Assembly (NCBI GenBank): GCA_963715985.1
Contig: CAVQSP010000001.1
Location: 1 to 40,432, forward strand
Direction: 5' to 3'
Source of the DNA: an uncultured Thermoleophilia bacterium
GTDB taxonomy: Bacteria; Actinomycetota; Thermoleophilia; UBA2241
DNA length: 40,432 nucleotides
Part shown: one piece after another, positions 84-26,094 of the stretch
How the letters are laid out: every line of letters starts with the position of its first letter
Position numbering within the stretch: the first letter of the stretch is position 1
Translations under genes and position numbers: made by a program
The notes under the pieces: generated by a model
Database searches by the model: none
Told to the model about the DNA's origin: nothing
Seen by the model: the letters and a program-made list of their open reading frames with translations, nothing else

Positions 84-630
84 GCACCCCCGGTGGTCCG
101 CGGGCAGCCGCCGCCCCGCCGTACGGTCGATCCTCCCCAGGAGCTTCACGGCAGGCTCGCGTGCTGCGGCGAGCCCGCGCGGACGACGCACCGGCCCTGC
201 TTGCCATCATCGAGGAGCCTGAGGTGGCCGCCTGGTGGCGCCGGGCGGAGTGGGAGCGTCTCGACGAGCGCGACGCAGTGACGTTCGCGATCGAGTACGA
301 AGGTCGCATGGCCGGCTGCATCCAGTCGGCGAGGAGACCAACCCCGACTACTTCTCGGCGGCCGTGGACATCTTCGTCTCGGCCGCCGTGCACGGCGAGG
401 TGTGGGCACCGACGCCATGCGCACGCTCATAGCCTGGCTCATCGATGGTCGTGGTCACCACCGGCTCACCGTTGATCCCGCGCTCGCCAACGCCCGCGCC
501 ATCCACGTGTACGAGCGGCTCGGTTCCGCTCTGGGCGTGCTGCGTGGGTTCAGTCCGTCGATGGCGACACCTGGCGTGACGCCCTGCTCATGGAGTTGTG
601 GCCGTCGAGTTCGTCCGCGGGCAAGCGTGA
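80..630 (+). CDS. GNAT acetyltransferase, AAC(6')/RimJ-like (frameshifted in this assembly)
   Basis: Pieces in successive frames: LRRARADDAPALLAIIEEPEVAAWW..GCIQ / EETNPDYFSAAVDIFV / GTDAMRTLIAWLIDGRGHHRLTVDPALANARAIHVYERLG / WRDALLMEL..EFVRGQA*; TGA at 628-630. Confidence 0.75.
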
Positions 631-978
631 GGCCCGGCCCGCCCATCCGCGAAAGCTTCGTGCCCTTCCACGGGCTGCGCATGTGGTATCGCGTGGTCGG
701 CGAGGCGGAGGAAGCTGGGCGGCTGCCGCTCATGCTGGTGAATGGAGGTCCGGGGTTCCCGCACGACTACCTGGAGCCTCTCAAGGGGCTGGCTCGCGGG
801 CGTCAGGTGGTCTTCTACGACCAGCTGGGCTGCGGGCGCTCCGACCGCCCGAACGATCCGTCGCTGTGGTCGGTGGAGCTGCTCGAGGAGAGCTCGTACG
901 CGCCGCACCTGGAGGAGCCGGAGCGCTTCATCGCGGTGGTGCGGGTACCTGCGGAAGGTAGAGGAAGGGGCCGCGTGA
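627..978 (+). pseudogene. Proline iminopeptidase-family alpha/beta hydrolase remnant with large internal deletion
   Basis: N-terminal motifs (WYRVVG, NGGPG, YDQLGCGRSDRP..LW) join directly to the C-terminal EESSxxPHLEEPERF motif; no GxSxG nucleophile segment; likely C-terminus YLRKVEEGAA* ends at 978. Confidence 0.65.
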
Positions 979-2024
979 GCGGCGGGCCGCAGGATGCGGC
1001 CGCTCCCGCGGCCCCGTACCCCAAGATCGAGCTGCACGTGCACCTGGAGGCCACGGTCAAGCCGGCGCGCCTGCTGGAGATCGCGCGCCGCAACGACGTG
1101 CGCCTGCCGGCGAAGACGGAGGCCGGGTTGGAACGCTTCTACCGCTTCCGCGGCTTCGACCACTTCGTCCTGGTCTGGATCAAGACCACCCGGGCCCTGG
1201 TGCACGGGCGCGACTTCCGGCAGGTCGTCGTGGACTACGCCGGGGAGCTCGCCGCGCGCGGCTGCGTGTACGCCGAGGCGCTCTTCTCGCCCTCCGAGCC
1301 CATGGCGCGCGGCACGCCCTGGCAGGAGATCTTCGAGGGCTACTGCGACGGCGCCGACGAGGCCCGCGAGACGCACGGTGTGGACATCCGCTTCACCCCC
1401 GACATCACGCGGGACTTCCCCGTGGAGATCGCCGACCACCTCGTGGGGTGGGCGGTGCGCTTTCGTGAGCGGGGCGTGGTCGGCATAAGCCTGGGCGGCA
1501 GCGAGAACCGCTACCCACCGGAGCTCTTCGAGCGGCCGTTCGCGGCCGCCCGCGAGGGCGGTCTCAAGGCCGCACCGCACGCCGGCGAGCTCGCCGGGCC
1601 GGCGTCCGTGCGCGGCGCGCTCGACGTGCTGCACGCCGACCGCCTGCGGCACGGCGTGCGCGCGGCCGAGGACCCGGCGCTCCTCGCCGAGCTCGCCGGG
1701 CGCGGCATCGTCTGCGACGTGACGCCCATCAGTAACGTCCGGACCGGAGTCGTGCGCTCGCTCGCCGAGCACCCGCTGCCGCGGATGCTCGCCGCCGGCG
1801 TCGGCTGCTCGATCTCCAGCGACGATCCGGTGCTGATGGACACCGACCTCGACCGCGATTGCGCCGCGGCCCTGAGCCTGGGCCACACACCGCGCGGCAT
1901 GTTCGACCAGGCGCTCGCAGGCGCCTTCTGCGAGGCAGGTACGAAGGACCGGCTTCGCGAGCTGAGCCGGACCTACGACTGGGCCGCGGCGGGGGTTGGC
2001 CGCGGGCACACCCGGGCAGACTAG
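975..2024 (+). CDS. add: Adenosine/adenine deaminase
   Basis: PKIELHVHLE, HAGE, RLRHG and SSDDP metal/catalytic motifs; GTG at 975 overlaps the upstream TGA. Confidence 0.88.
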   Translation: MSGGPQDAAAPAAPYPKIELHVHLEATVKPARLLEIARRNDVRLPAKTEAGLERFYRFRGFDHFVLVWIKTTRALVHGRDFRQVVVDYAGELAARGCVYAEALFSPSEPMARGTPWQEIFEGYCDGADEARETHGVDIRFTPDITRDFPVEIADHLVGWAVRFRERGVVGISLGGSENRYPPELFERPFAAAREGGLKAAPHAGELAGPASVRGALDVLHADRLRHGVRAAEDPALLAELAGRGIVCDVTPISNVRTGVVRSLAEHPLPRMLAAGVGCSISSDDPVLMDTDLDRDCAAALSLGHTPRGMFDQALAGAFCEAGTKDRLRELSRTYDWAAAGVGRGHTRAD

Positions 2025-6441: not shown

Positions 6442-6517
6442 GGGCGACTAGCTCAGTTGGGAGAGCGCCAGCTCGACAAGCTGGAGGTCGTTGGTTCGAA
6501 ACCAACGTCGCCCACCA
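6442..6517 (+). tRNA. tRNA-Val(GAC)
   Basis: Acceptor GGGCGAC/GTCGCCC, D arm GCTC/GAGC, anticodon arm CCAGC-TCGACAA-GCTGG, T loop TTCGAAA, encoded CCA; 76 nt. Confidence 0.93.
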
Positions 6518-6776: not shown

Positions 6777-7600
6777 TCACCCCAGGGCGGCAGCCGGTTC
6801 GCTGATGAGGATCTCCCCCTTGCCGAGCCAGCAGGTGTCGCCGCTGAAGCGCCGGTGGAGGCCGCCCCATCCGCGCTCCGGTGCAGGCACGCCCCGCTTC
6901 TCCAGGTGGGCCGCGTACACGCGCAGGAACGTCGGCTCGTAGGTGCAGGCGTAGAGAAACGTCGGCAGAAGCTTGAGCGGCTCATACGCGATGATCGTGC
7001 CCCTGGCCATCCAGGCGCCGGCGCGGATGCCCGCCCTGCCGAGCAGGAAGAGGGTGCCGCCCTTCATCTGCATGCCGACGAAGTCGCCGACCCGACCGCC
7101 TATGCTGATGAGACCACGCAGCATGCGCATCCCTACCTCGATCCCGGCGTCGCCGTCGATAGGATCTCGCCACCCCGCATGCCCACGGTGCTGCCACGGT
7201 AGGCCGCGCCGACCTGCCCGCCGGCCCTGCCGTGGACGTGGATGAGACCGCCGGTCATCTCCGCGCCCAGCCAGTCCGCGGCGTCACCGTCGACGGTGAT
7301 GGTCCCGCCGCTCATCGACGCTCCGAGATGCATCCCCGCGTTGCCGTGCACGGCGATGCTGCCCTGCGTCATGCCCCGGCCGATCCACTTGACCTGGGCG
7401 AGGTCTCCGTGCAGTTCGAGAGACGCGCTCCTCTCGCCCTCCACCTCGAAGAAGTCCCCGAGGCGCCTCTGCCGATTACCCAGAAACACCGGCAGAGCCA
7501 AGATGTCCGCGTGTGTCAGACCGGCGATGACGTCGGGCGAGAGCGCCTCCGCTTCGAGCGGGGTCGCCAGATCCTCTTTGAGAGTCGCTACGACGCTCAC
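6777..7600 (-). CDS. fwdC: Formylmethanofuran dehydrogenase subunit C, copy 1 (one frameshift near 7150)
   Basis: PLEAEALSPD, RLGDFFEVEG, repeated GxxMxGGxIxVxG beta-helix units, GAAYRGSTVGMRGG, terminal FSGD..GKGEILI. Confidence 0.88.
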
Positions 7601-7674
7601 CTTGCCGTCACCTCGCTCATGTCCGCGCCGAGGACACCCTCGACAGCCGGATCCTGACTCGTCGCTCGCGCGCT

Positions 7675-8980
7675 TCACTGGCCCCGGGCGGCGGCCCTGA
7701 GCGCGACCTCTTTCAGGAGTCCGCCGCATGACTTCCTCGTCGGTCGGGTATGGCGACTTGAGCGACGGCCGCACGTGCAGAGGGACCTCATCCATGCGGT
7801 AGACGGTGCCGGGGGCGCTGATGCCCGTCACGGCGGTGGTGATGTGCACGCGAGCGAGCTCGGCTGGTGTGCGTGACCTTCGGGTCCAGGACGATCGTCG
7901 GCACCCGCGCGCATGTGGTCGATGGCCGGCTTGGGCATCGTCGCCCCGGGGTCCGCGGCGAGCACCAGCACGGCATCGACCTCGCCGCGGGTGAGCAAGT
8001 CGATGGTGGTGTACTCGCCGGGGTTGTAGCGCGGATAGCCGCGGCTGAAATCGACCCCGAACGGATAGCCCGTCAGCCAGCTCGTGACGGCATCGGCGCC
8101 GGTCACGTTGCCGTGACCGCGCAGCGGCATCGCCACGAAGCGGGTGTAGTCGTTCATCTCCACACCCAGCGTGAGTACGGCGGCCGCATTCATGTACTTG
8201 CCGCGGGTCATGGTCAGGCCCATCCCGAAGAACATCGCCCCATAACGGGCGCTCTTCATGCGGTCCGCCAGGTCCTGGAGCTGCTCCAGCGTGAGACCCG
8301 TCTCCTCGAGGCACTGCTGGTCGACGCGACGGCCCTTGATGAGCGCACGCAAAGCCGTGAGAGCCTCGAAATCCTTGCCCGGGCGGATCTGAAGGAAGAT
8401 GTCGGCGACGCGCGCACTCGGCGTGTTGCGGATGTCGACGAGGACGACCGTCCGCCCTTTGCGGCCCTCGGGCGTGTACTTGCCCTTTCGGCATCACGGA
8501 GTAGCGGGTGAAGTGGCGAGGATGGCACTCCGACGGATTGGCGCCCCAGAGGATGACCAGGTCGGCCCGATCCCTGATCTCGCCCAGCGTGGCTTTTGAC
8601 CTACCGCCCAACTGGGCGGCCATTTCGCTAGGGCCGTGTCACAAGGATGAATGGCTGTCGACCACCCCTCCGAGCCGCTCCGCGAGCAGCACCGCCTCGC
8701 GCTGGGTCTCGCACGTCGTATTGCTCAGGCCGTAGATGAGAGGGTAGTGAGCATCGACGAGGATGTCCGCCGCCGCCGCCACCGCGGTATCGAGATCGGC
8801 GGGCTGTCCGTCGATGAGCGCCGCCGGATAGTGCGCCTCGGCATCATGGTTCGTGAACCAAGCCCCACCCAACGCGCACGCGTGCTTGGCCTTGACGATG
8901 CGATCCCCCTCGGTCTGCACCTCGATGTCGTCGCAGACGCAGCCGCAGAACGTACACACGGCGTTGGTGACGGTAGCCAT
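7675..8980 (-). CDS. fwdB: Formylmethanofuran dehydrogenase subunit B, predicted selenoprotein (UGA at 8639-8641; several frameshifts downstream)
   Basis: CTFCGCVCDD..HAC Fe-S motif, SSL[UGA]HGPS, TLGEIRDRADLVILWGANP..HPRH..RYS, PLRGHGNVTG, WLTGYPFGVDFSRGYPRYNPGE, GTVYRMD. Confidence 0.9.
8600..8632 (-). promoter_or_regulatory. Bacterial SECIS-like hairpin
   Basis: 3' of the UGA: stem GCCGCCC/GGGCGGU with apical loop AGUU starting 25 nt after the UGA; lower CCUA/UAGG pairing possible. Confidence 0.7.
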
Positions 8981-9048
8981 TGCTTACTCCTCAGCCGATC
9001 GATTGACCGATGTTATCGAGCGCCCGCACGGGGCGCAGCCCTGAATGC

Positions 9049-9224
9049 TCAGCCCAGTGCCCCGCCGAGGAAGCTGCCGCGGACGCGGCGCGGAAGCCAC
9101 AGATCGTCTCCGATCTCCTCCCACGGCAAGACATCCTCGTCGCGGGTACCTTGCGGTTCGCGCCGGGCAGGTTGAATCTGGGCTGTGTGTCGTTGGAAGC
9201 CCTGGATGTCTCCACGATCGTCAC
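9049..9224 (-). CDS. Possible small hypothetical protein between fwdD and fwdB (would need one frameshift)
   Basis: AAGGAG upstream; pieces ..ETSRASNDTQPRFNLPGANRKV and RDEDVLPWEEIGDDLWLPRRVRGSFLGGALG*; no family recognised. Confidence 0.3.
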
Positions 9225-9249
9225 GCTCCTTCACTACGTCTCGGACCGG

Positions 9250-9600
9250 TCACTGGCCCCGGCTCGTCTGGCCGGTGGCGGGCTCGACCTCGACCTCCCA
9301 GTTCTTCTGCGATGGCATCCCCGTGCCGTCCGTGTCTCCGCCCATGAGCTGACACGTGGGCGGCCCGTAGGGGACGAAGACCATGCCGGACGGGAGATCG
9401 CCCTCCGCGCAGCTGTACACGGCCTCGCCCCATTCAGTGCGCACGCGGACCGGATCGCCGGGCGCGAGGCCCATGTCCGCGAGATCCTGCGGATTCATGT
9501 CCAGAGTGCTGACCACCGACAGGTACTCATCCCTGAGCTTGCCCATGTTCTCCTGCTGGCCCTGCTTGATCGTCCGTCCGGCGACGAACACACAATGCAT
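9250..9600 (-). CDS. fwdD: Formylmethanofuran dehydrogenase subunit D (molybdopterin dinucleotide-binding)
   Basis: AGRTIKQG, MNPQDLADMGL..GDPVRVRTEWGE, GMVFVPYGP, TDGTGMPSQK; AAGGAGG RBS before ATG at 9600. Confidence 0.88.
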   Translation of the reverse strand: MHCVFVAGRTIKQGQQENMGKLRDEYLSVVSTLDMNPQDLADMGLAPGDPVRVRTEWGEAVYSCAEGDLPSGMVFVPYGPPTCQLMGGDTDGTGMPSQKNWEVEVEPATGQTSRGQ

Positions 9601-9830
9601 ACGGTCCTCCTTCGCCCCGGGAGCGTATCGGGTCAGAGCTTCGTGCTGCGAGATCGCAGAATGATACAGCATCGTTGCCGGCGGCAGAGCAGTGACACCG
9701 GATCGCCGGACGTGGGCCCGGCCGACGCCTGCCGGGCAGGGGGTCGCCCTCCTCGAGGGTCTGTGGCCTGAAGCTAGGAACGGCCTCGATCGGGAGGATG
9801 CCATCCGCTATATTTCTCTATAGTAGACCA

Positions 9831-9859
9831 TTGACAGTCAAGAGCTGGCTCCATAGAGT
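9831..9859 (+). promoter_or_regulatory. Sigma70-type promoter of the main C1 operon
   Basis: TTGACA (9831-9836), 17 nt, TAGAGT (9854-9859), with an AT-rich stretch upstream. Confidence 0.65.
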
Positions 9860-10074
9860 CGCCGGCGCGATACGAAGGCTACCCCTGCGGAGGGGATGGT
9901 CTGGCTGTTCCGAAGTTGCCGCACCCTGACAGCCGGGCTGCCGAGATGGTATCGGTGGGCCGGCTTTCGCGTCTCCGAGACCGGTCTCGAGGCGGAACGG
10001 AGCGAGGAGGTGAGAGGCCTCCCGGCGCCGCGCCGGTCGACGGCCAGTTCGTCGCCAGTGAGCGGCTTCACGGG

Positions 10075-10090
10075 AAACAAACAAACAAAC
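10075..10090 (+). repeat. (AAAC)4 tandem repeat in the operon leader
   Basis: AAACAAACAAACAAAC in GC-rich DNA. Confidence 0.9.
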
Positions 10091-10105
10091 GGCAATGTCT
10101 GCGTC

Positions 10106-10129
10106 GTGCCTGTGATAGGCATTTCTTTT
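10106..10129 (+). terminator. Leader terminator/attenuator-like hairpin with U tract
   Basis: GTGCCTG-TGA-TAGGCAT followed by TTCTTTT, 25 nt before the first ATG. Confidence 0.45.
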
Positions 10130-10153
10130 CACCAAACGGAAGGAGGGTCAGGT

Positions 10154-10357
10154 ATGCAGTGTTATGTGTGCGCGAAGGCCGGCAAACAGACCGAAGCGGT
10201 CGGCATCTGTATCGTGTGCGGCATGGGTCTCTGCATGGATCACGCGCTCCGTGAGGATGTCGATCTCTGGGAAGGGGGCTACCCGTTCCCGAGCCAGAAG
10301 GCCAAGAAGAAGTTGCCGCGCATCCTCTGTGCGGAGTGCAAAGCGGTGGTGGGCTGA
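10154..10357 (+). CDS. DUF2180-like small Cys-rich (Zn-ribbon) protein, 67 aa
   Basis: MQCYVC..AVGICIVCGMGLCMDH..GGYPFP..LPRILCAEC; AAGGAGG RBS. Family recognised from memory. Confidence 0.75.
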   Translation: MQCYVCAKAGKQTEAVGICIVCGMGLCMDHALREDVDLWEGGYPFPSQKAKKKLPRILCAECKAVVG

Positions 10358-10480
10358 GCGGAGCCGTCTCGGGCTGAACTGGCCAGCCGGACCGCGTATC
10401 AGCGGTGACGAGGGCCGGAAGGCGATGTCCACAGGTGTATCCACGATCGGGAATCGGTCAATCAAGGTACGGAGGTAGAG

Positions 10481-12013
10481 ATGTCGCTGTACGAGAAGAT
10501 GATCAACGAGGCAGTCGGCGCGACCAAAGCGGTGTTCGGTGTGAACAAGGCCAACCGCGGCGGCACTTTCAAGGTCACCGATGCCAAGCCGTACGTCGAC
10601 GCCGTGAACAAGATGACGGCGTACGAGGGGCAGTCCCAGGAAGTCATCGACCTGCACGTGAAGTCGGTCAACGCCCACTTCGACGTCATGACCTCCCTCA
10701 CGGAAACGGTGCGTCCTGAGGACGATCCGTTCGTCGAGCACTATCAGACGCCGCCGATCCTCGAGATCATGTATGAAGAGGATCCCGCCTTTAAGGCTTC
10801 GATGTGGAAGTTCATCGACGCCATCGCCGCCAACAAGGCGCTCGTCGGCCTCGAGGCTGCGCGCCGCTACGGCGGCATGTACGGCCCGACGTGCGTCGTG
10901 GACTTCGCGATGTCGGTCGGCTCGGTGCCCAACCTCGTGAACCAGATCCTGGTCCCGATGGACATCCCGGCCGACCACAAGAAGACCATCCTCGCCTGCA
11001 AGTCGTGGGGCATGAACACCTCCTACGGCCTCGCCGGTGCCTTCCGCGCCGCCGTCGAGTCGGGCAAGACCCTGGCCGACGCTGAGCAGGCCGAGGTCGA
11101 CATGCTGCAGTTCGTGTACCGCGAGCCCTCCGCCGCGCAGGCGCAGCTCATGGCCACCCACAACCTCGGCGGCCACGGCCCGCACAGCTCCTTCGATGTG
11201 GTCAAGTACATGGCTCAGTACAAGGAGGCCATGCGTCCCACCATCGTCGCCGCCATGAAGGCCGGCGTGCACTACGCCAACATCACCGCCGTGCCCGCCT
11301 ACTGCGTCGGCGACGTCGCCCACCACATCGCGCAGTCGGCGTACAACATGTTCAACGACGACATGGTGTTCGCGATCTACGAGGCCGTCACCGGCGTGCT
11401 CGAGAACACGCTGAACCGCGCCCTCAAGGCCGACGCCTTCAAGGGCCCCTACGATGTGCTCTCCGTCGCCACCGGCTCCACCGCCTGCGCGACTGCCTAC
11501 ATCCTCTGGAAGGACAGCTTCACGGTCCCGATGGTCATCGACCTGCTCAACAAGCGCTTCCACAACTACGCCGCCATGCATCCGGATCGCGGCGAGGCCG
11601 ACGAGCTGCACAACGTCGACTTCATGGACATCCTCAAGCGCGGCGAGCACATCCTCGACATCAAGCCGATCGGCGCCGGCGGCAAGGTCAAGGGCGTCGA
11701 GGTCGACCTGAGCACGGTCGACGGCAACGATGTCATCAGCAACCCGCAGCGCTACACGTATCCGGCCTGTGCCATCACCCAGCGCTTCGCCGCCCTGATG
11801 ACGCTGTCCGACTTCCCGTGCTTCCTGACGCCTGAGTGCACGACGGCGACCCTCATGACCAACGCCATCGCCGTCGCTCCTGGCACTCCTGGCGCCCCGG
11901 TTCGTGCCTGCAAGGACTGCGCGACGTGCGCCCTGATCAAGAGGAACGTCCCCATGGCGACCGGTCGTGGTTCCGGCGCCGTGGGCTACTGCCAGTGGAA
12001 CGTGGCCGTCTGA
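10481..12013 (+). CDS. DUF2193-like protein, 510 aa, with C-terminal CxxCxxC
   Basis: LYEKMINEA..RG..FKVTDAKPYVDAV, PEDDPFVEHYQTP, YGPTCVVDFA, KSWGMNTSYG, C-terminal CKDCATC; GGAGG RBS; intact ORF. Family recognised from memory. Confidence 0.75.
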   Translation: MSLYEKMINEAVGATKAVFGVNKANRGGTFKVTDAKPYVDAVNKMTAYEGQSQEVIDLHVKSVNAHFDVMTSLTETVRPEDDPFVEHYQTPPILEIMYEEDPAFKASMWKFIDAIAANKALVGLEAARRYGGMYGPTCVVDFAMSVGSVPNLVNQILVPMDIPADHKKTILACKSWGMNTSYGLAGAFRAAVESGKTLADAEQAEVDMLQFVYREPSAAQAQLMATHNLGGHGPHSSFDVVKYMAQYKEAMRPTIVAAMKAGVHYANITAVPAYCVGDVAHHIAQSAYNMFNDDMVFAIYEAVTGVLENTLNRALKADAFKGPYDVLSVATGSTACATAYILWKDSFTVPMVIDLLNKRFHNYAAMHPDRGEADELHNVDFMDILKRGEHILDIKPIGAGGKVKGVEVDLSTVDGNDVISNPQRYTYPACAITQRFAALMTLSDFPCFLTPECTTATLMTNAIAVAPGTPGAPVRACKDCATCALIKRNVPMATGRGSGAVGYCQWNVAV

Positions 12014-12059
12014 GCAAGCCGGCCTTCGGGGCGCGCTGAGGGCTGCGCGCACCGGATCA

Positions 12060-12092
12060 TGCGGGGGCCGGGCTGAAGGCCCGGCCCCCGCA
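12060..12092 (+). terminator. GC-rich hairpin after DUF2193 (terminator or mRNA stabiliser)
   Basis: TGCGGGGGCCGGGC-TGAAG-GCCCGGCCCCCGCA, 14-bp perfect stem, no U tract. Confidence 0.6.
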
Positions 12093-12129
12093 CGGACCAC
12101 CCTGTCACTACGTTCCTGGAGGTAACACA

Positions 12130-12900
12130 GTGCCACAACCCACACTCGCGAAGCGGGCGATCACGGAATTGATCGGCACCTTCGTGCTCGTGTTCCTGGG
12201 CACCGGCTCCGTGGTGACCGTCGTCACGAAACTCGGATTCCTGGGCCCGACCGGCGGTGAAGGCACCGGGCTCGTCCCGGGAGGCCTGCTCCTCATCGGC
12301 CTCGCCTTCGGCTTCGCCGTGCTCGTCATGATCTACGCCTTCGGGCACATCTCCGGCACCCACATCAACCCTGTGGTGAGTATCTGCCTGTGGGCCACCG
12401 GCCGTTTCCCGGCCAAGGACATGGTCACGTACGTCGTCATGCAGCTCATCGGCGCCACAGCGGCCTCCCTCATTATCGCGGCCATCTGGGGTCAGGCGGC
12501 GATCGACGCAGGTCTGGGCATCACCCTGCCTGGCACCGGTATCAGCTATGGGATAGCTATTCTGTGCGAGCTCGTGACGACCGCCTTCCTGGTCATCGTC
12601 ATCTGGGGCTCCGCGGTCGACAGCCGGGCGCCGAGCGGCTTCGCCGGCGTCGCCATCGGCATCGTGGTCGCCGCAGACATCATGGTGACAGGCCCCATCA
12701 CCGGCGCCTCGATGAACACCGCGCGTTCGTTTGGGCCGTTCCTGGCCGAGACGATCTTGGGCGGCAAGAACGCCGACGGCGCTGCCATCGCCGACTGGGC
12801 CAAGTTCCCCATCTACATCATCGGGCCGATCGTCGGCGGTCTCATCGCCGCGTTCGTCTACGACTACATCTCGGGTATCAAGAACAAGGCGGCGGAGTAA
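12130..12900 (+). CDS. MIP/aquaporin family channel (AqpM-like)
   Basis: ELIGTFVLVFLG, GHISGTHINPV, GASMNTARSFGP, YIIGPIVG; multiple hydrophobic helices. Confidence 0.93.
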   Translation: MPQPTLAKRAITELIGTFVLVFLGTGSVVTVVTKLGFLGPTGGEGTGLVPGGLLLIGLAFGFAVLVMIYAFGHISGTHINPVVSICLWATGRFPAKDMVTYVVMQLIGATAASLIIAAIWGQAAIDAGLGITLPGTGISYGIAILCELVTTAFLVIVIWGSAVDSRAPSGFAGVAIGIVVAADIMVTGPITGASMNTARSFGPFLAETILGGKNADGAAIADWAKFPIYIIGPIVGGLIAAFVYDYISGIKNKAAE

Positions 12901-13048
12901 GCGATTCCGGCGTCGCTCAAGCGTGGCCGAATCTGGCCGCGGAGACATGACACTGAGGCGGGCGGGGGCGTGACGCACGTCGCGGATTCCCCCGCCCGCG
13001 CTCATATCGGAGCCAGGTGGCTGCAAGCGAGAGTCTGGCGGTGATCGC

Positions 13049-13660
13049 ATGGGCGGGACCGGCATCACGCTGCTGGGCATATCCGGGAGTCCTCGCCTGA
13101 AGTCCACGCACTACGCCGTCAACGAAGCTCTCGAGTACGCGCGAGACCGTCACGGCGTCGAGACCGATTACTTCAGCGTGCACAAGAACGCCATCGGATT
13201 CTGCACGCACTGCGACTTCTGCGTCAGGAAGAAGCAGGGCTGCATCCAGGACGACGCCATGCGCGAGGTCTACGAGAAGATGCTTCGAGCAGACGCCTGG
13301 ATCCTCGGCAGCCCCGTCTACCAGGGGCAAGTCAGCGGTCAGATGAAGACGCTCCTCGATCGCTGTCGCGCTGTGGTGGCTCGTGACGTACACGCGTTTC
13401 GCAACAAGGTGGGGATGGGCATCTGCATCGGCGGTGACCGCAGTGGCGGCCAGGAGCCGTCGCTGCAGTCGCTGGTCGACTTCTATCTCATCAACCAGAT
13501 GATCCCCGTCGGGGGCGGCGCGTTCGGCGCCAATCTCGGCGCCGCGATATGGTCGCGTGACAAGGGCGCCGACGGAGTCAAGGCGGACGATGAGGGTCTG
13601 GCGGCCGTGCATCGCGCCGTGGACCGTCTCGTTCACGTGGCGCGACTTCTCCGCCCGTGA
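13049..13660 (+). CDS. Iron-sulfur flavoprotein (Isf/flavodoxin-like)
   Basis: GISGSPR, CTHCDFCVRKKQGC cluster motif, GSPVY, KTLLDR, RSGGQE. Confidence 0.85.
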   Translation: MGGTGITLLGISGSPRLKSTHYAVNEALEYARDRHGVETDYFSVHKNAIGFCTHCDFCVRKKQGCIQDDAMREVYEKMLRADAWILGSPVYQGQVSGQMKTLLDRCRAVVARDVHAFRNKVGMGICIGGDRSGGQEPSLQSLVDFYLINQMIPVGGGAFGANLGAAIWSRDKGADGVKADDEGLAAVHRAVDRLVHVARLLRP

Positions 13661-13683
13661 CCCGCTGTGAGGAGGTCCACGAA

Positions 13684-14250
13684 ATGACACTGAAGGTCGT
13701 GTGGGGCATCAGCGGTTCCGGCGACAAGATGCCCGAGACCGTCGCCGCCATGGTGGAAGTGCAGAAGCGGCTCGACGTGGAGATCACGGCGGCCGTCTCC
13801 ATCGCCGGGGTGCGGGTGCTGCGCTGGTACAAACTGACCGAGACGGTGGAGGAGATCGCCAAGTCGGTGAAGATCGAAAAGGACGCCAACTCACCGTTCA
13901 TCACCGGGCCTCTGCAGATCGGTCAGTACGATTGCCTTCTGGTGGCGCCCGCGACTGCGAACTCGGTGGCCAAGATCGCACACGGGATCGAGGACACCAT
14001 GCTGACCAACGCCGTCGGTCAGACCGCCAAGTCCACGACGCCGATCTACATCATGCCGGTCGACCTCCGCCCGGGGACGACAGTCACGATGCGCCCGGGC
14101 GGCGAACGCCTCGAGCTCAAGATCCGCGAGATCGACGTGGAGAACACGAACAAGTTGCGGACGATGGAGGGGATCACGGTGTTCGAATCACCCTCCGAGA
14201 TCGAGGGCATCCTCCGCGCCTGCGCGGAACGGCGGGACGCCGCCTCGTGA
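13684..14250 (+). CDS. afpA: Archaeal-type flavoprotein AfpA (dihydromethanopterin reductase family)
   Basis: VVWGISGSGD, LQIGQYD.LLVAPATANSVAKIAHGI.DT.LTNAV, PVD; H4MPT cluster context. Confidence 0.8.
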   Translation: MTLKVVWGISGSGDKMPETVAAMVEVQKRLDVEITAAVSIAGVRVLRWYKLTETVEEIAKSVKIEKDANSPFITGPLQIGQYDCLLVAPATANSVAKIAHGIEDTMLTNAVGQTAKSTTPIYIMPVDLRPGTTVTMRPGGERLELKIREIDVENTNKLRTMEGITVFESPSEIEGILRACAERRDAAS

Positions 14251-15218
14251 GGGTGTCGGTCGCCACCGGTTGCAGGCTTCACCTGGGCTTCACCAATCTC
14301 AGCGACGACGTCGGTCGGTGCTTCGGGAGCATCGGCGTGGCTCTCGACCGCCCCAGCACGACGGTCGTGGTGGAGGAAGGCGGCGACGCGGCGACCATCG
14401 TCGGCGACGACCCGGAGCAGATCCGCTCCTGTCTGCGGCGCTTCTGTGAGCATTATCAGGTGGACCCGAGAGTCTCCATCGATGTCCGTGAGAGCATCCC
14501 CCAGCACGCGGGCCTTGGATCCGGCACCCAGCTCGCGCTGGCGATCGGTCTCGGTCTGGCCAGAGTCTGCGGCATCGACGCCGATGTGTGGGAGGTCGCC
14601 ACGGCCATGGGCAGGGGACGGCGCTCCGGGGTCGGGACCGCGGCCTTCCAGGCGGGCGGCTTCATCATGGACGCCGGCCATCGAAAGGGCCGCAGCGGAA
14701 GGGAGGCGGCGCCGACAGTCGTGTGGCGCCGGGACTTCCCCGCCGACTGGCGGTTCCTGGTCGTCCTGCCCGACGTCGAGAGAGGCATGAGCGGGCGCAG
14801 CGAAGAGGGGGTCTTCGGCGCCCTCCTGCCGTCGGTGCGGATCTCCGAAGAGGTGTGCCGGATCGCGCAGCTCAGACTCATGCCGGCTCTCGTAGAGCGC
14901 GACATCGAGGAGTTCGGGCGCGCTTTGACCGCTGTGGACCGCAAGACGGGCGAGTACTTCTCAGACGTGCAGGGCGGGCTCTACAGCGGAGGCGACGTCA
15001 ACGCCGTCATCGAGACGCTCTTGAGGGCGGGCGCCTACGGTGCCGGTCAGAGCTCGTGGGGCCCGGCCGTCTACGGTCTGGTGCACGAGCGGGACGCGGA
15101 GCGGGTCGAAATGGCCACCCGCGCGGCCCTGGCGGAGCAAGGCCTGGGGGCAGCGTTCTTCGTGAGCCACGGCCGCAACACCGAGGCAAGGGTAGAAGTG
15201 CCGAGGGCGGCCCTATGA
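14247..15218 (+). CDS. mptG: Beta-ribofuranosylaminobenzene 5'-phosphate (RFAP) synthase
   Basis: RLHLGF, FGSIG, PQHAGLGSGTQLAL (GHMP), RG.RSGVG, GGFI.D.G, GQSSWGP. Confidence 0.9.
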   Translation: MRVSVATGCRLHLGFTNLSDDVGRCFGSIGVALDRPSTTVVVEEGGDAATIVGDDPEQIRSCLRRFCEHYQVDPRVSIDVRESIPQHAGLGSGTQLALAIGLGLARVCGIDADVWEVATAMGRGRRSGVGTAAFQAGGFIMDAGHRKGRSGREAAPTVVWRRDFPADWRFLVVLPDVERGMSGRSEEGVFGALLPSVRISEEVCRIAQLRLMPALVERDIEEFGRALTAVDRKTGEYFSDVQGGLYSGGDVNAVIETLLRAGAYGAGQSSWGPAVYGLVHERDAERVEMATRAALAEQGLGAAFFVSHGRNTEARVEVPRAAL

Positions 15219-15800
15219 GTCCGGCTGGAGCTGCTGGAGCAACGCCTCCAGCGCCGTTTGGTAGGCCGACCCAGGGGCCACCTTGCGCACGACGCGGAGG
15301 TTCTCGGTGAGCGCCGTCAGCACGCTGGAAGCATCGACGCGCTCGATCCTCGTGAAGAGCACGAGACTCTCCAGCAGAAGCCCCTCCGCGCGATTGATGA
15401 GGCGCGGGGTGCCGTGGCACAGCACGCGCCTCACGCTGCCGACGACGCGCACGGTCTGGGCGTCGCGCGTCGTGCTCTTGAGGGTCAGCTCCACGGTGGC
15501 CGTGCAGCCGTCCACATGTGGGGCATGCTGGCCCGGCGCCTGTACGAACGTCAGGTCCCGCGGGGAACAGAGGGCCGCGTACAACATCGCAACGTCACGA
15601 GGGAAATTGGCCGCGAACTCGCCGTTGCGCAGGATGGCGGCCAGCGTGTGGGAGCCGTCGTACAGGTCCATCGACAGCTCATCGGCAGCGTCTGCCCACA
15701 CGCCCACGGGGGCAGCGTGGGGACCCCGCTGACCCAAGGTGGAGACCAGAGCTTCGTAGATCCAGCCCGGCCGCAGGCCGAGCACGTCGAGCTGGTGCAT
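15213..15800 (-). CDS. DUF447-like protein (orf22-type, H4MPT cluster)
   Basis: YEALVST..PHAAPVGV, split-barrel-like segment, NRA..LLE.LV..TRI. Confidence 0.7.
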   Translation of the reverse strand: MHQLDVLGLRPGWIYEALVSTLGQRGPHAAPVGVWADAADELSMDLYDGSHTLAAILRNGEFAANFPRDVAMLYAALCSPRDLTFVQAPGQHAPHVDGCTATVELTLKSTTRDAQTVRVVGSVRRVLCHGTPRLINRAEGLLLESLVLFTRIERVDASSVLTALTENLRVVRKVAPGSAYQTALEALLQQLQPDS

Positions 15801-15937: not shown

Positions 15938-16799
15938 ATGAAGAAGATCCTCGTGCAGTTCGACAGCGATCGGGTCGCTGCCGTGTTCGATGCGGTCACG
16001 GCGTATGACGCCGGCATCGACGCGCTCCTGCAATACGGCGGTATCGAGCCCGGCGAAGTCCGCGACCTCGTGTACGGCGCCATGTTCACGCGCGGCCCCG
16101 CCGATCTCAAGAACACCGCCGTCTTCATCGGCGGCATCGACGTGGCCAAGGGCGAGGCGATCCTCCGCGAGGCGGTGGGCTCGTTCTTCGACCCCCTGCG
16201 CGTCTCCGTGATGCTCGACTCCAACGGCTGCAACACGACGGCGGCGGCGGCCGTGGTCAAGGTGATCTCGGCGGTGGCCGTGAGCGGGCAGAAGGTCGTG
16301 GTGCTGGCGGGTACCGGACCGGTGGGGCAGCGGGCCGCCGGACTGCTCGCGGCCGAGGGCGCTCAGGTGACCCTGACCTCACGTGACGATCGAGCGCGCC
16401 CAAGCGGCGTGCGCCGTCATCAAGGACCGTTTCGGCGCCGACGTGACGGCGGCAGTGGCGGACAACGAGGCCGCCACCGCGGCGGCGCTCGAAGGCGCGT
16501 GCGCCGCGGTGTGCACGGGCGTCGAGGGCATCCAGCTCGTACCTGAGAGCATCTGGCGGGAGCACCCGACACTGCGCGTGCTCGCCGACGTCAACGCGGT
16601 ACCGCCGCTGGGCGTCGAAGGTACGAAGGCGACGTGGAACGGTAAGGAGGTGGGCGACAAGCTGTTGTATGGCGCCCTCGGCATCGGCGATCTCAAGATG
16701 AAGGTGCACAAGCGCTCTATCGCCCGCCTCTTCGAGCGTAATGACCTCGTCCTCGACGCCGAGGGCATCATGGAGAGCGCCAAGGAGCTGGCCGGGTAG
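15938..16799 (+). CDS. mtd: NAD(P)-dependent methylene-H4MPT dehydrogenase, MtdA/B/C family, MtdC-like (frameshift near 16385)
   Basis: KKILVQFDSD...VFD, FTRGP.DLKNTAVFIGG, DSNGCNTTAAA, AGTGPVG, DVNAVPPLGVEG, GALGIG.LKMK.H. Confidence 0.9.
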
Positions 16800-23452: not shown

Positions 23453-24342
23453 ATGCACATCAACGGAGTGGAGATAGAGGACACGTTTGCCGAGGCCTTC
23501 GGAATGTGGGGCTCACGCCTGGTGGTCACGGGGGAGGACCTGGACTGGGCCCGCACCGCAGCCGAGGCGGCGACCGGCTTCGCCACCTCCATCATCGGGT
23601 GTGGCTGCGAGGCCGGCACGAATGATCTGGCTCCCGGCGAGCAGACGCTCGACGGGCGTCCGGGGGTTGCGGCGCTGGTGTTCGCCACGTCACGGGGCAA
23701 CATGGAGACGCAGCTGCTGCAGCGCGTGGGTCAGGCGGTGATGACCTCGTGCCACATCGGCCTGCTACAACGGTCTTGTCGCCGATGAGAAGGTCAAGGT
23801 GGGCGGCAAGCTCCGCTACTTCGGCGACGGCTTCCAGCGCAGCAAGTTGCTCGACGGCCGGCGTCTGTGGCGCGTCCCGGTGATGGATGGCGAGTTCGTC
23901 GTGGAGGAGAGCTTCGGCGTCGTCAAGGGCGTGGGCGGCGGCAACTTCTTCATGATGGCCGGCAGCCTGAGCGCGGCGCTCGCCGCGGCGCGAGCGGCTG
24001 TGGCCGCGATGCGTGCCGTGCACGGCGCGATCATGCCGTTCCCCGGCGGCGTGGTGCGCAGCGGCAGCAAGGTCTCCTCGCGGTACAAGGGGCAGCACGT
24101 CTCCAGCAACACGCCGTACTGCCCGACCTTGCGGGCGGAAGAAGGCAGCGCTCTCGTGGACGGGCGAGAACGCCGTGCTCGAGATCGTCGTGGACGGGCT
24201 CACCGAGGCGGCCGTGGCCGAGGCCATGCGAGTGGGCATCGCCGCCGCCTGCCTGCCCGGCGTGACGCGCATCTCCGCCGGCAACTACGGAGGCTCGCTC
24301 GGGCAGTTCCACTTCGCCCTGCGCGAGCTGATGAGTGCCTGA
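23453..24342 (+). CDS. ftr: Formylmethanofuran:H4MPT formyltransferase (frameshifts near 23750 and 24160)
   Basis: INGVEIEDTFAEAF, TGFATSIIGCGCEAG, DGRPG, LRYFGDGFQ, GVGGGNF, PFPGGVVRSGSK, EIVVDGL, ISAGNYGG.LG. Confidence 0.92.
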
Positions 24343-24355
24343 GGAGGCTGCGGCG

Positions 24356-25145
24356 ATGGGCTGTATCGCCTGTGCGGCGCTGGTGCTCGACGGCGCCTGC
24401 GTGACGTTGACGCGCAAAGCGTCGAGCCCGCGCCCAGTGGACGCGGCACAGCGTCTGCCCGGATCGCTTCATGGGTCTCGGGCAGACCGAGCATCGCGGC
24501 GCTCCCGGTCGTCTGCGGCGGTACCCGCGATGGCGCTCGGCGACCTCTTCGAGATGGACGGCATCCGGCACCTACAACATCGCCGTGTGCGGCGATCTCA
24601 CCGGCGTGGAGCAGATCGGTCAAGGGATGACCAGGGGTCGAGTGACCGTAGCGAGTGACGTGGGCACTGCACCTCGGGGCCTGCATGAGCGGCGGCGAGA
24701 TCGTGGTGGAGGGCGCCGCCGGGGATGGGCTGGGCTCCGGGATGTCGGGCGGCCGCATCGTCGTGCAGGGCGACGCCGGGCCGCGACGCGGGCGCGCGCA
24801 TGGGCGGCGGCGTCATCGTGGTGCTCGGCGACGCCGGCGAGCTACACCGGAGCCGGCATGACCGCCGGATCGATCGTCGTCGCCGGCAGGCTCGGCGGAC
24901 TCCCCGGGAACAGGGATGGCCGGGCGGCACGGTCGTCGCCTTCGGCGAGGCGCCCGAGCTGCCGTCGACGTTCCGCTATGCCGGGCCTAGACCGGCCCGC
25001 CTTCCTGGGCTCCCTCCTGCTCGGCCTCGAAGAAGAGGGTCTCGTGAAGAGCCCACGGGTCCCCGAGGGCGAGTTCCGGCGCTTCGTGGGCGATATCGAC
25101 AACGGTGGTGAGGGGGAGGTGCTGGTCCGTGATCAGTCTGAATGA
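24356..25145 (+). CDS. fwdC: Formylmethanofuran dehydrogenase subunit C, copy 2 (FhcC-like; many frameshifts)
   Basis: Pieces across frames: [58 protein letters not shown]...GEGEVLV. Confidence 0.78.
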
Positions 25146-26094
25146 GACAGGCTGCCGCCGTCGTCGAGAGGCTGAGGGCGGCCGCGGAGCCTCTGGGTGT
25201 GGCGGTATCCGAGCTCGAGAACGGTGCCACGGTCGTGGACGCCGGGGTGGAGGTCGACGGGACGCTGGAAGCCGGCCGGCTGTTTGCCGAGGTGTGCCTG
25301 GGCGGGCTGGCGGACGTCCAGTTCCGCGCAGCTCACCTCGAGGCCTCGTCCTCCCGGGCGTCGAGGTGAACGTGCACCGCCCGGTGCTCGCCTGCATGGC
25401 TTCTCAGTACGCCGGGTGGGCGCTCAACGTGCCTGCCACCGAGACTCCGAAGAAGTACTTCGCCATGTGCTCCGGGCCGGCCAGGGCGCTGTACCGTGGC
25501 GACCCGATCTTCGCCGACATCGACTACCGCGATCCGGCGACCGTGGCGGTGCTGACGCTGGAGGCGGACCGCCTGCCGCTCGCTGGAGGTGGCGGCTGGG
25601 TCGCCGGCAAGTGCGGGGTCGCGACAGACGCGCGTGATGCTGCTGGTGGCCCCCACCGCCAGCCTCGTGGGCTCCGTGCAGATCGCGGCGCGCATCGTGG
25701 AGACCGGGCTCCACAAGATGCACGAGGTGGGATTCGACATCGACACCGTTCGCTCCGGCTTCGGCTCGTGCCCCCTGGCTCCGGTGGCGGCCGACGATCT
25801 CGCGGCCATCGGGCGCACCAACGACGCGGTCCTCTACGGCGGCCGCGCCTGGTACACGGTCGAGACCGACGATGCGCTCATCGAGAGCGTCATCGAGCGC
25901 CTGCCCTCGGCGCGTCGAGCGACTACGGTGTGCCGTTCGGGGAGCTCTTCCGCCGGTACGGTGGCGACTTCTACAAGATCGACCCGCTGCTCTTCAGTCC
26001 CGCCGAGATCACCATCACCAACGCGGCGAGTGGCAGGACCTTCCACGCCGGCCACGTCGACACGGACGTGCTGCGCGCATCGTTGTTCGCGTGA
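25129..26094 (+). CDS. mch: Methenyl-H4MPT cyclohydrolase (frameshifted)
   Basis: [78 protein letters not shown]. Confidence 0.92.

Follow-up and report, generated by a model that had tools for sequence, protein, structure and literature searches.

Genes for H4MPT-linked C1 transfer occur widely among uncultured bacteria of soil and the subsurface, and how carbon is supplied in those lineages that lack the formaldehyde-activating enzyme (Fae) is a question. The window analyzed here, a 40,432-nucleotide stretch of DNA from an uncultured Thermoleophilia bacterium, raises it directly: a three-gene module (positions 10154-12900), encoding a 67-aa DUF2180 protein, a 510-aa DUF2193 protein and an AqpM-type MIP channel, lies 3' of a promoter-like site and 5' of genes for H4MPT- and methanofuran-dependent C1 transfer. 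DUF2193 has so far been studied only as an iron-sulfur protein of methanogens. We asked what this module is likely to do in front of the pathway, for which an earlier note on this DNA had proposed it as an entry system.

Layout of the module and the C1-transfer island

The co-location of mtdB, mch, ftr, fwd/fhc subunit genes and cofactor biosynthesis genes identifies an H4MPT/methanofuran C1-transfer island (Table 1). The promoter-like site in front of the module is the sole such site within positions 9700-13800, where 0.4 would be expected, and its -35 hexamer is exact in the leaders of 8 of 11 aligned relatives. HMM scans confirmed the three family assignments made in the earlier note, and its description of the first three genes after the promoter as intact was borne out by alignment: DUF2193 aligns with its counterpart in the closest relative over residues 1-510 (97%), and the channel aligns over its full length with a relative's MIP. 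This intactness holds for the three module genes and fails for the island, several genes of which are broken by frame breaks in the present assembly; mch lies in four pieces, ftr in two, fwdB is also frame-broken, and the mtdB-like gene aligns to an intact relative in two segments. Nor is the island a single operon, as had been supposed: DUF447 lies on the minus strand, and fwdD/B/C (~6777-9804) diverge upstream of the module.

Table 1. Features of the module and its surroundings in the window
Feature	Position	Strand	Evidence and remarks
fwdB	7690..8980	-	TIGR03129 pieces; in-frame TGA at 8639-8641 and a later frame break
fwdD-like subunit	9250..9804	-	NF042908, E 1.1e-21, below cut-off; Molydop_binding; divergent from module
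Promoter-like site TTGACA-17-TAGAGT	9831..9859	+	10/12 matches
Conserved structured leader RNA, riboswitch-like	9875..9971	+	Models R1, R2
DUF2180, 67 aa	10154..10357	+	PF09947, E 3.7e-36, 123.5 bits, cut-off 22.2
DUF2193, 510 aa, all-alpha, C-terminal Cys motif C477 C480 C483 C504	10481..12013	+	PF09959, E 1.2e-224, 746.9 bits, cut-off 25; residues 2-490 on profile 2-489 of 498
AqpM-type MIP channel, 256 aa	12130..12900	+	PF00230, E 3.8e-47, 161.4 bits, cut-off 25
FMN reductase-family flavoprotein with Cys cluster	13049..13660	+	PF03358, E 4.4e-33
Archaeoflavoprotein AfpA	13657..14250	+	TIGR02699, 219.7 bits, cut-off 192.45
Beta-RFAP synthase (H4MPT biosynthesis)	14250..15218	+	TIGR00144, 169.5 bits, cut-off 113.5
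DUF447	15213-15800	-	Opposite strand to module
mtdB-like methylene-H4MPT dehydrogenase	15938..16796	+	Mpt_N, E 3e-31; frame break at ~16385

Association of DUF2193 with the H4MPT pathway

To survey DUF2193 loci, one-genome-per-species contigs were searched with a profile from a 12-sequence alignment, and 522 of the 598 matched stretches encode a DUF2193 relative; the locus set comprises the best 80 of these 522, i.e., those closest to the window protein, with archaeal loci outside the set. Among the 54 loci of the best 80 that have at least 6 kb of downstream sequence, an mtdB-like gene lies 3' of DUF2193 in 52, and all of them (54/54) contain one or more H4MPT or methanofuran genes. The gene directly after DUF2193 is mtdB in 16 loci. 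Represented among these loci are Thermoleophilia, Chloroflexota, Desulfobacterota, Synergistota, Caldisericota and Bacillota, and an unbiased clustering of the open reading frames returned the same neighbors. In a Synergistaceae locus, DUF2193 is the first gene of the operon, and the genes upstream are unrelated.

We also analyzed co-occurrence with mch across genomes. In the class draw, 11 of 18 mch-positive genomes carried DUF2193 and 0 of 183 mch-negative ones did; the Synergistota sample gave 8 of 11 and 0 of 110, respectively; in the draw of relatives, all 10 genomes with DUF2193 carried mch and none of the 28 mch-negative genomes carried DUF2193. Thus, over the three draws (28 + 183 + 110), DUF2193 occurred in 0 of 321 mch-negative genomes, and mch was present in all 30 DUF2193 genomes drawn. 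The pathway context anticipated for DUF2193 rests on these counts (52/54 loci, 30/30 genomes): the check set beforehand, association of DUF2193 with H4MPT genes across genomes, turned out positive, and the attempted refutation failed. Four of the five genomes behind the exception and the short loci also contained mch, and five diverse DUF2193 genomes all contained both mch and ftr. DUF2193 as a substitute for Ftr was ruled out, ftr being present in its own genome and in 5/5 other carriers.

Outside Thermoleophilia, the median identity to the window was 74% for DUF2193, compared to 62% for mtdB, 58% for MptA and 55% for fhcA, and DUF2193 is by this measure the island's best conserved gene. Between the bacterial clade and the archaeal representatives, identity is 38-45%. 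Gene order and co-occurrence show DUF2193 as a dedicated, very strongly conserved component of a Fae-less, FwdD-containing form of the pathway in the six lineages above.

Such a component could in principle serve the cofactor rather than the C1 unit, making, repairing or salvaging H4MPT or methanofuran. We consider this unlikely. DUF2193-headed operons do hold MptA, HPPK, a pterin-binding enzyme, beta-RFAP synthase, AfpA, DUF447 and ATP-grasp ligases, and in the window the genes for the FMN reductase, AfpA and RFAP synthase come after DUF2193. However, the same cofactor genes and a complete pathway occur without DUF2193 in G038 (a complete genome from this class), Mch, Ftr and Fae occur without it in Methanocaldococcus jannaschii (search controls), and a cofactor role would leave the pairing with a channel unexplained. 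H4MPT is indispensable to methanogens. The homologue of Methanococcus maripaludis, however, is reported as non-essential in the accessible text of Dieter et al. 2025 (PMC12375889).

Carriers of DUF2193 usually lack Fae

The absence of fae from the window, pointed out in the earlier note, extends to the whole genome (4.35 Mb; completeness 88.8%, contamination 7.3%), in which the Fae family (PF08714) had 0 matches. The best tblastn match of two Fae proteins to the window reached only E 0.076, and in HMM scans the module proteins matched their own families only, not PF08714. No fae gene was found within 10 kb of DUF2193 in the 80 best loci, and no Fae match was obtained in five diverse DUF2193 genomes, in 121 Synergistota genomes or in the class draw's 11 carriers of DUF2193. 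Fae was present in 2 of the 30 DUF2193 genomes, both belonging to the 10 found among relatives, and in both cases it lay at a distance from the island, in a setting unrelated to H4MPT.

In the class draw, 5 of the 18 mch-positive genomes had neither Fae nor DUF2193; therefore, the pathway may need neither. Formaldehyde and H4MPT condense spontaneously. We rejected strict mutual exclusion of DUF2193 and Fae, given the two genomes with both. What survives of the exclusion suggested earlier is a tendency, Fae being usually absent where DUF2193 is present. Moreover, because DUF2193, Fae and Mch coexist in Methanosarcina acetivorans (search controls), DUF2193 is not a Fae substitute in archaea, and this coexistence argues against its being a plain Fae substitute.

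There is nonetheless a likeness between the two. In G038, fae is the first gene of an operon holding mtdB, the position that DUF2193 takes elsewhere, and the distributions of the two are largely complementary among the mch-positive bacteria sampled. They have no sequence or fold relation: Fae has ~160 residues and no metal cluster, whereas DUF2193 has 510 residues with an apparent Fe-S site.

Sequence and predicted structure of DUF2193 and DUF2180

The predicted structure of DUF2193 is of high quality (pLDDT 90.1, pTM 0.91). In the alignment, R26, Q89, E205 and N267 are invariant and H66, D141, Y182, D278, H281, H282 and R359 nearly so, while the C-terminal cysteines are conserved in most of 21 aligned members (C477 in 16, C480 in 17 and C504 in 18), with C483 also present in the window. 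The sequence gave two chance rows only against PDB chains (E 0.3); the whole-chain model gave 0 Foldseek matches to the PDB at E <= 0.001 and, with VIA-align over 48,161 chains, a best Z of 6.2 over 104 residues, with generic helical bundles only. Nothing usable matched in the ESM Atlas, and among 138 matches to all cluster representatives none fell outside the family. The model thus has no detectable known fold.

The protein to compare is MvoDUF2193 (Mvol_0354) of Methanococcus voltae, which binds one [4Fe-4S] cluster through C477, C480 and C493 and exists in a tetramer/monomer equilibrium (Dieter et al. 2025, PMC12375889). The two share the Pfam family, three C-terminal cysteines, an all-alpha body and an adjoining AqpM-type channel gene, as far as the accessible parts of that paper describe them. 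In contrast to Mvol_0354, the bacterial clade carries 11 inserted residues in its Cys tail and is tied to an mtdB/H4MPT island behind a leader RNA; neither link was found in the accessible portions of the DUF2193 literature searched. Published physiology, according to what is available of PMC9431491 and PMC12375889, is limited to M. voltae, where the protein increases 13-fold on pyrite, an indication of a role in handling iron or sulfur.

DUF2193 might accordingly be an Fe-S carrier, a sulfide-handling protein or a redox partner serving the metal-rich FwdABCD of the same operons, a reading that we regard as rather unlikely. It would fit the [4Fe-4S] binding, the shift of oligomeric state with cluster loading and the rise on pyrite (PMC12375889), as well as a C-terminal motif common to an ApbE-like protein tied to sulfide assimilation (PMC9431491), both sources being available in part. 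It would also fit the islands themselves: those of the DUF2193 type hold fwdD and a Cys/Sec-type fwdB, while G038, the sole fae-type island examined, gave no fwdD match, and a second copy of the leader RNA precedes fwdD-fwdB in a Syntrophobacter genome. However, a carrier role leaves unexplained the cross-phylum median identity of 74% over a helical body of 470 residues that includes invariant polar positions, and the usual immediate neighbor is mtdB, not fwd.

DUF2180 carries eight Cys/His residues (C3, C6, C19, C22, C27, H30, C59 and C62), all invariant in an alignment of 13 sequences. Its predicted structure is only moderate (pLDDT 67.6) and returned no significant Foldseek rows (best E 0.83); cross-brace zinc fingers predominate among the non-significant rows, which is a hint only. 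DUF2180 was not mentioned in the literature searched.

The channel resembles AqpM

The closest solved chains to the window channel are the AqpM structures of Archaeoglobus fulgidus (3ne2) and Methanothermobacter marburgensis (2evu/2f2b), with E 1.4e-55 for 3ne2 and 2.6e-54 for 2evu; AqpM chains outmatch AqpZ (1e-55 vs. 1e-26), and assignment to the Aquaporin Z equivalog (NF003838) was rejected, its 137.7 bits falling under the cut-off of 256. The selectivity filter, F-I-A-R, agrees at three of four positions with the published F62 I187 S196 R202 of AqpM (PMC6912568, seen in its accessible text), sharing F, I and R with Ala in place of Ser, and an AqpM-like F-I-(A/S)-R filter is found in 34 of 39 linked channels. 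Unlike AqpM, which has NPA + NPA, the window channel has NPV + NTA. This pair is common only to the window and its three closest relatives (L017, L029 and L084) when compared with the 38 other linked channels, 35 of which have NPA/NPA.

A MIP gene was found in 34 of the 66 loci with enough downstream sequence and was missing in 32, and DUF2180 was present in 27 of the 80 loci. The channel and DUF2180 are dispensable, as many lineages retain DUF2193 alone.

Linkage to a channel is not new, as the DUF2193-MIP pairing was published for methanogens in 2025, with a MIP or porin gene adjoining 91% of methanogen homologues (PMC12375889, accessible part). This frequency and the AqpM-like filter would suit a self-contained channel operon that deals with a different small solute (metalloid, peroxide or sulfide) that merely travels with the C1 island. 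We hold this to be very improbable, since bacterial DUF2193 stays before mtdB even in the loci without a channel, is absent from the mch-negative genomes of all three draws (0/28, 0/183 and 0/110), and shares a leader RNA with the pathway.

A conserved leader RNA precedes the module

The leader RNA consists of a stem P1, a pseudoknot P2 (GGCUG:CAGCC) and a hairpin P3, the base of which competes with P2. It has a single match in its own genome (E 2.5e-13), lies 5' of DUF2193 in 36 of the best 80 loci and, among 41 relatives, occurs in exactly the 10 genomes with DUF2193. Of 22 base pairs, 18 changed on both sides, and 89.3% of cells were paired; the covariation score was 0.324 vs. 0.187 for shuffled alignments, with 0 of 500 shuffles as high and slid controls at <=0.087. 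For the pseudoknot, which lies outside the model, pairing of CAGCC with the upstream GGCUG was 92.9%, and 5/5 pairs were double-changed. The alternative partner of CAGCC is a downstream GGCUG at the base of the hairpin, followed in many loci by a U-run. Covariation in the aptamer part and the two mutually exclusive pairings, which resemble an expression platform, mark this RNA as a putative, riboswitch-like element, while the entire leader, folded as a single sequence, does not stand out (z -1.18).

The C1-metabolism riboswitches THF-I, THF-II and ZTP have a short aptamer, a pseudoknot, a competing terminator-like hairpin and occasional tandem copies, and they lie before C1 genes. The leader RNA resembles them in those features but has no match among the 4227 families of Rfam 15; a Methylosinus-1 row (E 0.063) was dismissed, falling inside the DUF2180 coding region. 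No title in the accessible part of the literature matching riboswitch and methanopterin (titles and abstract openings) names such an RNA.

In locus L061, the second RNA copy is followed by a gene for a 609-aa protein, which was rejected as a DUF2193 relative (hhalign probability 0.5%). RNA matches in two genomes, G411 and G480 (33.6-37.8 bits), were treated as unconfirmed or chance: the contig ends ~0.4 kb after the match in G411, and in G480 the 9 kb downstream contain no H4MPT gene, only a histidine kinase and cytochromes.

The earlier note had named, as evidence against its reading, a fae gene elsewhere that is co-regulated with the cluster while the module is not; here the module is co-regulated with the pathway through the leader RNA that they share. 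For DUF2193 itself, a role as sensor or regulator of the pathway, as suggested in the literature for the archaeal protein, is in our judgment the least probable of the readings considered here. That the protein switches its oligomeric state when it binds the cluster, and that nucleic-acid-binding E. coli proteins co-purify with it (both in the accessible text of PMC12375889), would agree with such a role, as would the first place of DUF2193 in the operon. Yet HMM scans found no DNA-binding domain in DUF2193 and no known fold was detected, an RNA-based control element already sits on the operon, and the best conserved gene of an island is rarely a regulator.

A proposed role at the formaldehyde end of the pathway

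In the window, an archaeal-type trio (DUF2193, DUF2180 and the AqpM-like channel) fronts the H4MPT/methanofuran island and stands under the riboswitch-like leader RNA. Our preferred reading, put forward tentatively, is that DUF2193 acts there as an Fe-S enzyme. In DUF2193, three conserved cysteines would hold the cluster, with invariant His, Asp, Glu, Arg and Asn residues in the helical body, and the enzyme would act at the formaldehyde/methylene-H4MPT end, beside MtdB. Its task would be to deliver the C1 unit, or to generate it, for subsequent oxidation by MtdB, Mch, Ftr and Fwd, or to remove it if the pathway runs in reverse. The channel may pass a small uncharged C1 solute, e.g., hydrated formaldehyde, across the membrane, and DUF2180 may be a small two-metal accessory protein.

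A bolder form of this proposal seems doubtful to us. Here, DUF2193 would be a new-fold Fe-S enzyme serving as the H4MPT entry in Fae-less anaerobic or facultative bacteria, making methylene-H4MPT or formaldehyde from a small neutral C1 compound admitted by the channel, and a new riboswitch class would sense that compound or an H4MPT-bound C1 intermediate.

DUF2193 hereby gains a precise genetic context, in that it stands first ahead of mtdB in six phyla and is the best conserved gene there, together with a co-occurrence rule and a regulatory RNA that allows a direct ligand search. Identification of the RNA ligand, or of the reaction that the enzyme catalyzes, would close a gap in the anaerobic C1 cycle and could explain the physiological role of AqpM-type channels.

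Comparison with described islands and further features

The H4MPT/methanofuran islands described for methylotrophs and for Synergistetes, Firmicutes, Chloroflexi and Deltaproteobacteria (Chistoserdova 2016, PMC5020050) have mtdB, mch, ftr, fwd/fhc, AfpA and cofactor genes in common with the window, and fwdD is retained in the window island as described there for anaerobic lineages. In contrast, DUF2193, the channel and the RNA leader are not mentioned as island parts in the accessible text of that paper. The FMN reductase-family gene is kept 3' of the MIP gene in 7/7 relatives' loci. When fwdB is read through with TGA as U, its in-frame stop gives SSL-U-HGPS and is a candidate selenocysteine codon, and the fwdB gene of Syntrophobacter has a stop at the same position.

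A one-carbon gene island around DUF2193

HMM scans placed the DUF2180, DUF2193 and MIP channel genes exactly where the earlier note had put them, and all three were intact, as it had claimed. This trio sits inside an island of H4MPT and methanofuran genes spanning the surrounding 6.7-33 kb of the window (C1:1-40432; G+C ~70%) in a 4.35-Mb genome of 22 contigs (88.8% complete, 7.3% contamination); the nearest named loci are from Thermoleophilia (Actinomycetota) metagenome-assembled genomes, at 97% protein identity. On the 5' side, fwdD, fwdB and fwdC diverge from the trio. Scans on the 3' side identified genes for an FMN-reductase-family flavoprotein, archaeoflavoprotein AfpA and beta-RFAP synthase, after which come mtdB, an ATP-grasp protein, fhcA/fwdA, MptA and a pterin-binding enzyme and, further 3', DUF1464, ftr, mch and RimK-type ligases. 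MfnB and others also belong to the island, a tRNA gene lies between an RNA helicase gene and its fwdC end, and a tryptophan operon occupies the right end of the window.

Coordinates of the features discussed (L numbers are loci from other genomes)
Feature	Sequence	Position	Strand	Remark
DUF2180	window	10154-10357	+	67 aa, E 3.7e-36
DUF2193	window	10481-12013	+	510 aa, E 1.2e-224
MIP channel	window	12130-12900	+	256 aa, E 3.8e-47
Promoter-like site	window	9831-9859	+	precedes trio
Leader RNA element	window	9875-9971	+	~97 nt
Terminator-like hairpin	window	10106-10122	+	with T-run
tRNA gene	window	6442-6514	+	65.4 bits
fwdB	window	7690-8980		split ~8350-8480
In-frame TGA	window	8639-8641	-	within fwdB
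mtdB break	window	~16385		2 pieces
ftr	window	23453-23882		2 pieces
mch	window	25145-26082		4 pieces
Composite ORF	window	402-2024		unrelated to island
Tandem RNA copies	L053	9239-9328, 9430-9519
Tandem RNA copies	L049	1980-2069, 2109-2198
Second RNA copy	L061	12744-12841
609-aa protein	L061	12924-14753
Second RNA copy	L101	1501-1589		Syntrophobacter; locus L101 is G043:C1:772617-775705
DUF2193 relic	L101	1907-2014		residues 95-130
fwdD-fwdB	L101	2020-2746		fwdB 2378-2746
Fae-family gene	L098	9224-9778
Fae-family gene	L099	9108-9611

DUF2193 is linked to the H4MPT pathway

Taking one genome per species, we found 522 stretches encoding a DUF2193 relative and kept the closest 80 (60-97% identity), which come from Thermoleophilia and other Actinomycetota, Anaerolineae and other Chloroflexota, Syntrophobacteraceae and other Desulfobacterota, Desulfovibrionaceae, Synergistaceae, Caldisericota and Bacillota. 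Neighbors were counted by tblastn with the window proteins. Of the 54 loci with 6 kb or more of downstream sequence, 52 had an mtdB-like gene downstream in the same orientation, and with a 4-kb minimum the figure was 56 of 60. In 16 loci mtdB followed immediately. All 54 loci contained some H4MPT or methanofuran gene. The same neighbors emerged from an unbiased clustering of the ORFs surrounding DUF2193. Four loci had no downstream mtdB-like gene (L044, L068, L085 and L088); among the genomes behind these exceptions and one short locus, mch was present in 4/5.

The association, which the earlier note had proposed as a pathway context for DUF2193, also held at the genome level. Among 41 relatives, 10 carried DUF2193, 13 mch and 12 Fae, and mch occurred in all 10 DUF2193 genomes; of the three genomes with mch alone of this pair, two were fragmented assemblies and the third was G038, which is complete and belongs to the same class. 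Among 201 genomes of the class that were at least 80% complete, DUF2193 occurred in 11 and mch in 18, including 11/11 DUF2193 genomes, and DUF2193 was found in 0/183 mch-negative genomes. Among 121 Synergistota, DUF2193 exceeded the cut-off in eight genomes (plus one contig-end fragment) and mch occurred in 11, including 8/8 with DUF2193; DUF2193 was found in 0/110 mch-negative genomes and Fae in 0/121. Five carriers from other phyla had mch (5/5) and ftr (5/5), with Fae in 0/5. This quantitative co-occurrence over three independent draws is new from the window. H4MPT genes have been listed in Deltaproteobacteria, Firmicutes, Actinomycetes, Synergistetes and Chloroflexi, with fwdD and Afp retained in anaerobic lineages; the first third of that account does not mention DUF2193 (Chistoserdova 2016, PMC5020050). 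Together, these results place DUF2193 genetically in the Fae-poor, FwdD-containing form of the pathway. The island is of a known kind, with a core protein, DUF2193, of no known fold and an uncatalogued control RNA.

Fae is rare beside DUF2193, yet not a simple counterpart

The absence of fae noted earlier extended to the whole of the window's own genome (88.8% complete), where no Fae match was found, and no fae lay within 10 kb of DUF2193 in the 80 loci. Over all draws, 2 of 30 DUF2193 genomes (G013 and G021) had a Fae homologue, located over 100 kb away from the island and flanked by a PfkB kinase, a 6PGDH-like dehydrogenase and an IMPDH-like gene, a context that looks like H4MPT-independent use. 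Fae-family genes occurred in 22/201 class genomes, 20 of these without mch, and also in genus members without mch. In G038, which has mch and not DUF2193, the operon order is fae, pterin-binding enzyme, mtdB, with fae first; this positional swap of fae for DUF2193 is likewise new from the window. However, a simple exchange of the two is disfavored, because 5/18 mch genomes in the class draw have neither and Methanosarcina acetivorans has both. The proposed mutual exclusion stands as rarity and off-island placement of Fae in DUF2193 genomes, but not as a rule.

A structured leader RNA precedes the operon

An alignment upstream of DUF2180 from 11 Thermoleophilia loci revealed a strongly conserved stretch just 3' of the promoter-like site, and a covariance model built from it had one match in the window's own genome (E 2.5e-13). 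Using the model's second iteration, we detected the RNA on the sense strand in 36/80 loci, upstream of DUF2193 or DUF2180, the sole downstream copy being an extra one in L061. Loci with the RNA belonged to Thermoleophilia, one other actinomycete, 11 Chloroflexota and 8 Desulfobacterota. No match was detected in loci of Synergistaceae, Caldisericota, Desulfovibrionaceae or Bacillota; in several loci the upstream sequence was too short to judge. Tandem or second copies occurred in L024, L026, L028, L049, L053 and L061, and among the 41 relatives the RNA was present in exactly the 10 DUF2193 genomes. DUF2193 is under an RNA control common to the island.

Across 34 sense-strand matches, paired cells make up 89.3% and both sides change in 18/22 pairs. 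The covariation score was 0.324; shuffled alignments scored 0.187 (0/500 reached the observed value), and slid controls did not exceed 0.087. A pseudoknot outside the model, GGCUG:CAGCC, was 92.9% paired with double changes at 5/5 pairs. Since its CAGCC doubles as the base of the next hairpin, and a U-run closes that hairpin in many loci, the predicted architecture is that of a transcription-terminating riboswitch; the pseudoknot/terminator competition is the third new element from the window. No Rfam 15 family matched. A second terminator-like hairpin lies directly 5' of the DUF2180 ribosome-binding site, and its hairpin-forming sequence is present only in the window within the leader alignment.

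On a complete Syntrophobacter chromosome, a second RNA copy is followed by a 36-residue DUF2193 relic and then fwdD-fwdB, which looks like a duplicated operon head minus DUF2193. Three weak matches in two other Desulfobacterota genomes are unconfirmed: one genome has no H4MPT gene in 9 kb downstream, and in the other the contig stops ~0.4 kb past the match. In L061 (Anaerolineales), the second copy lies ahead of a 609-aa protein that has no Pfam family and is unlike DUF2193; a LarC-like fragment and mtdB come next.

Properties and possible roles of the three proteins

DUF2193 is the island's first and most constrained gene: outside Thermoleophilia its median identity to the window is 74%. The corresponding medians are lower for mtdB (62%), MptA and the pterin-binding enzyme (58% each), fhcA (55%) and the channel (43%). 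With 138 cluster representatives, ~15 of them full length, the DUF2193 family is small and isolated. Its predicted fold is all-alpha with a disordered C-terminal tail (pLDDT 90.1, pTM 0.91) and resembled nothing in the PDB by sequence or in a whole-chain fold search. The Methanococcus voltae protein binds one [4Fe-4S] cluster, shifts between tetramer and monomer and was proposed to serve iron-sulfur trafficking or regulation; in M. maripaludis the homologue is not essential (Dieter et al. 2025, PMC12375889). We consider a regulator very improbable. Conserved cysteines C477, C480 and C504 lie in the tail, and R26, H66, Q89, D141, Y182, E205, N267, D278, H281, H282 and R359 in the body; because three rather than four cluster cysteines are conserved alongside invariant acid/base residues, the pattern seems to fit a catalytic site better than a carrier. 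A role as helper (iron-sulfur, sulfide or redox) to formylmethanofuran dehydrogenase is unlikely, although the M. voltae protein rises 13-fold on pyrite (PMC9431491), and a cofactor biosynthesis or repair step seems rather unlikely too.

The channel is predicted to be of the archaeal AqpM type: solved AqpM chains matched at E 1e-55 and 1e-54, AqpZ at 1e-26. Its aligned selectivity filter, F-I-A-R, agrees with the published AqpM filter (F62/I187/S196/R202; PMC6912568) at F, I and R, but has Ala in place of Ser. The 39 DUF2193-linked channels had FIAR (29), FISR (5), FIQR (4) or WGYR (1); NPV and NTA replace both NPA motifs only in the window channel and its three closest relatives (L017, L029 and L084), the remaining 35 having two NPA motifs. 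Within Thermoleophilia the channel's median identity is 66%, whereas that of DUF2193 is 89%. DUF2180 has eight invariant Cys/His and an invariant WEGGYP stretch; its predicted structure, of moderate confidence only, gave weak fold matches mostly to two-zinc cross-brace fingers, and none of the literature searched mentions it, against two papers for DUF2193. A MIP or porin gene adjoins 91% of methanogen DUF2193 homologues (PMC12375889); here the channel was found in 34/66 assessable loci and DUF2180 in 27/80. That the trio is an autonomous channel operon for another solute, merely travelling with the island, appears quite improbable.

We tentatively favor a reading in which DUF2193 would act as an iron-sulfur enzyme at the formaldehyde/methylene-H4MPT end of the pathway. 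Both other parts would be optional, the channel passing a small neutral C1 solute and DUF2180 serving as a metal-binding helper. Of the C1-entry system suggested earlier, the pathway context is well founded; the chemistry lies outside the supported part.

Frame breaks and a candidate selenocysteine site

Several island genes (mch, mtdB, ftr and fwdB) are split by frameshifts, and an ORF elsewhere joins acetyltransferase, proline iminopeptidase and adenosine deaminase pieces. Because many island genes and this unrelated ORF are affected alike, the breaks are probably assembly indel errors rather than gene decay. The in-frame TGA of fwdB lies within an SSL-U-HGPS motif, and the reading frame stays open past it, making fwdB a candidate selenocysteine-containing formylmethanofuran dehydrogenase subunit B. 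The site resembles the selenocysteine site of formate dehydrogenases, and the Syntrophobacter fwdB has a stop at the equivalent position.
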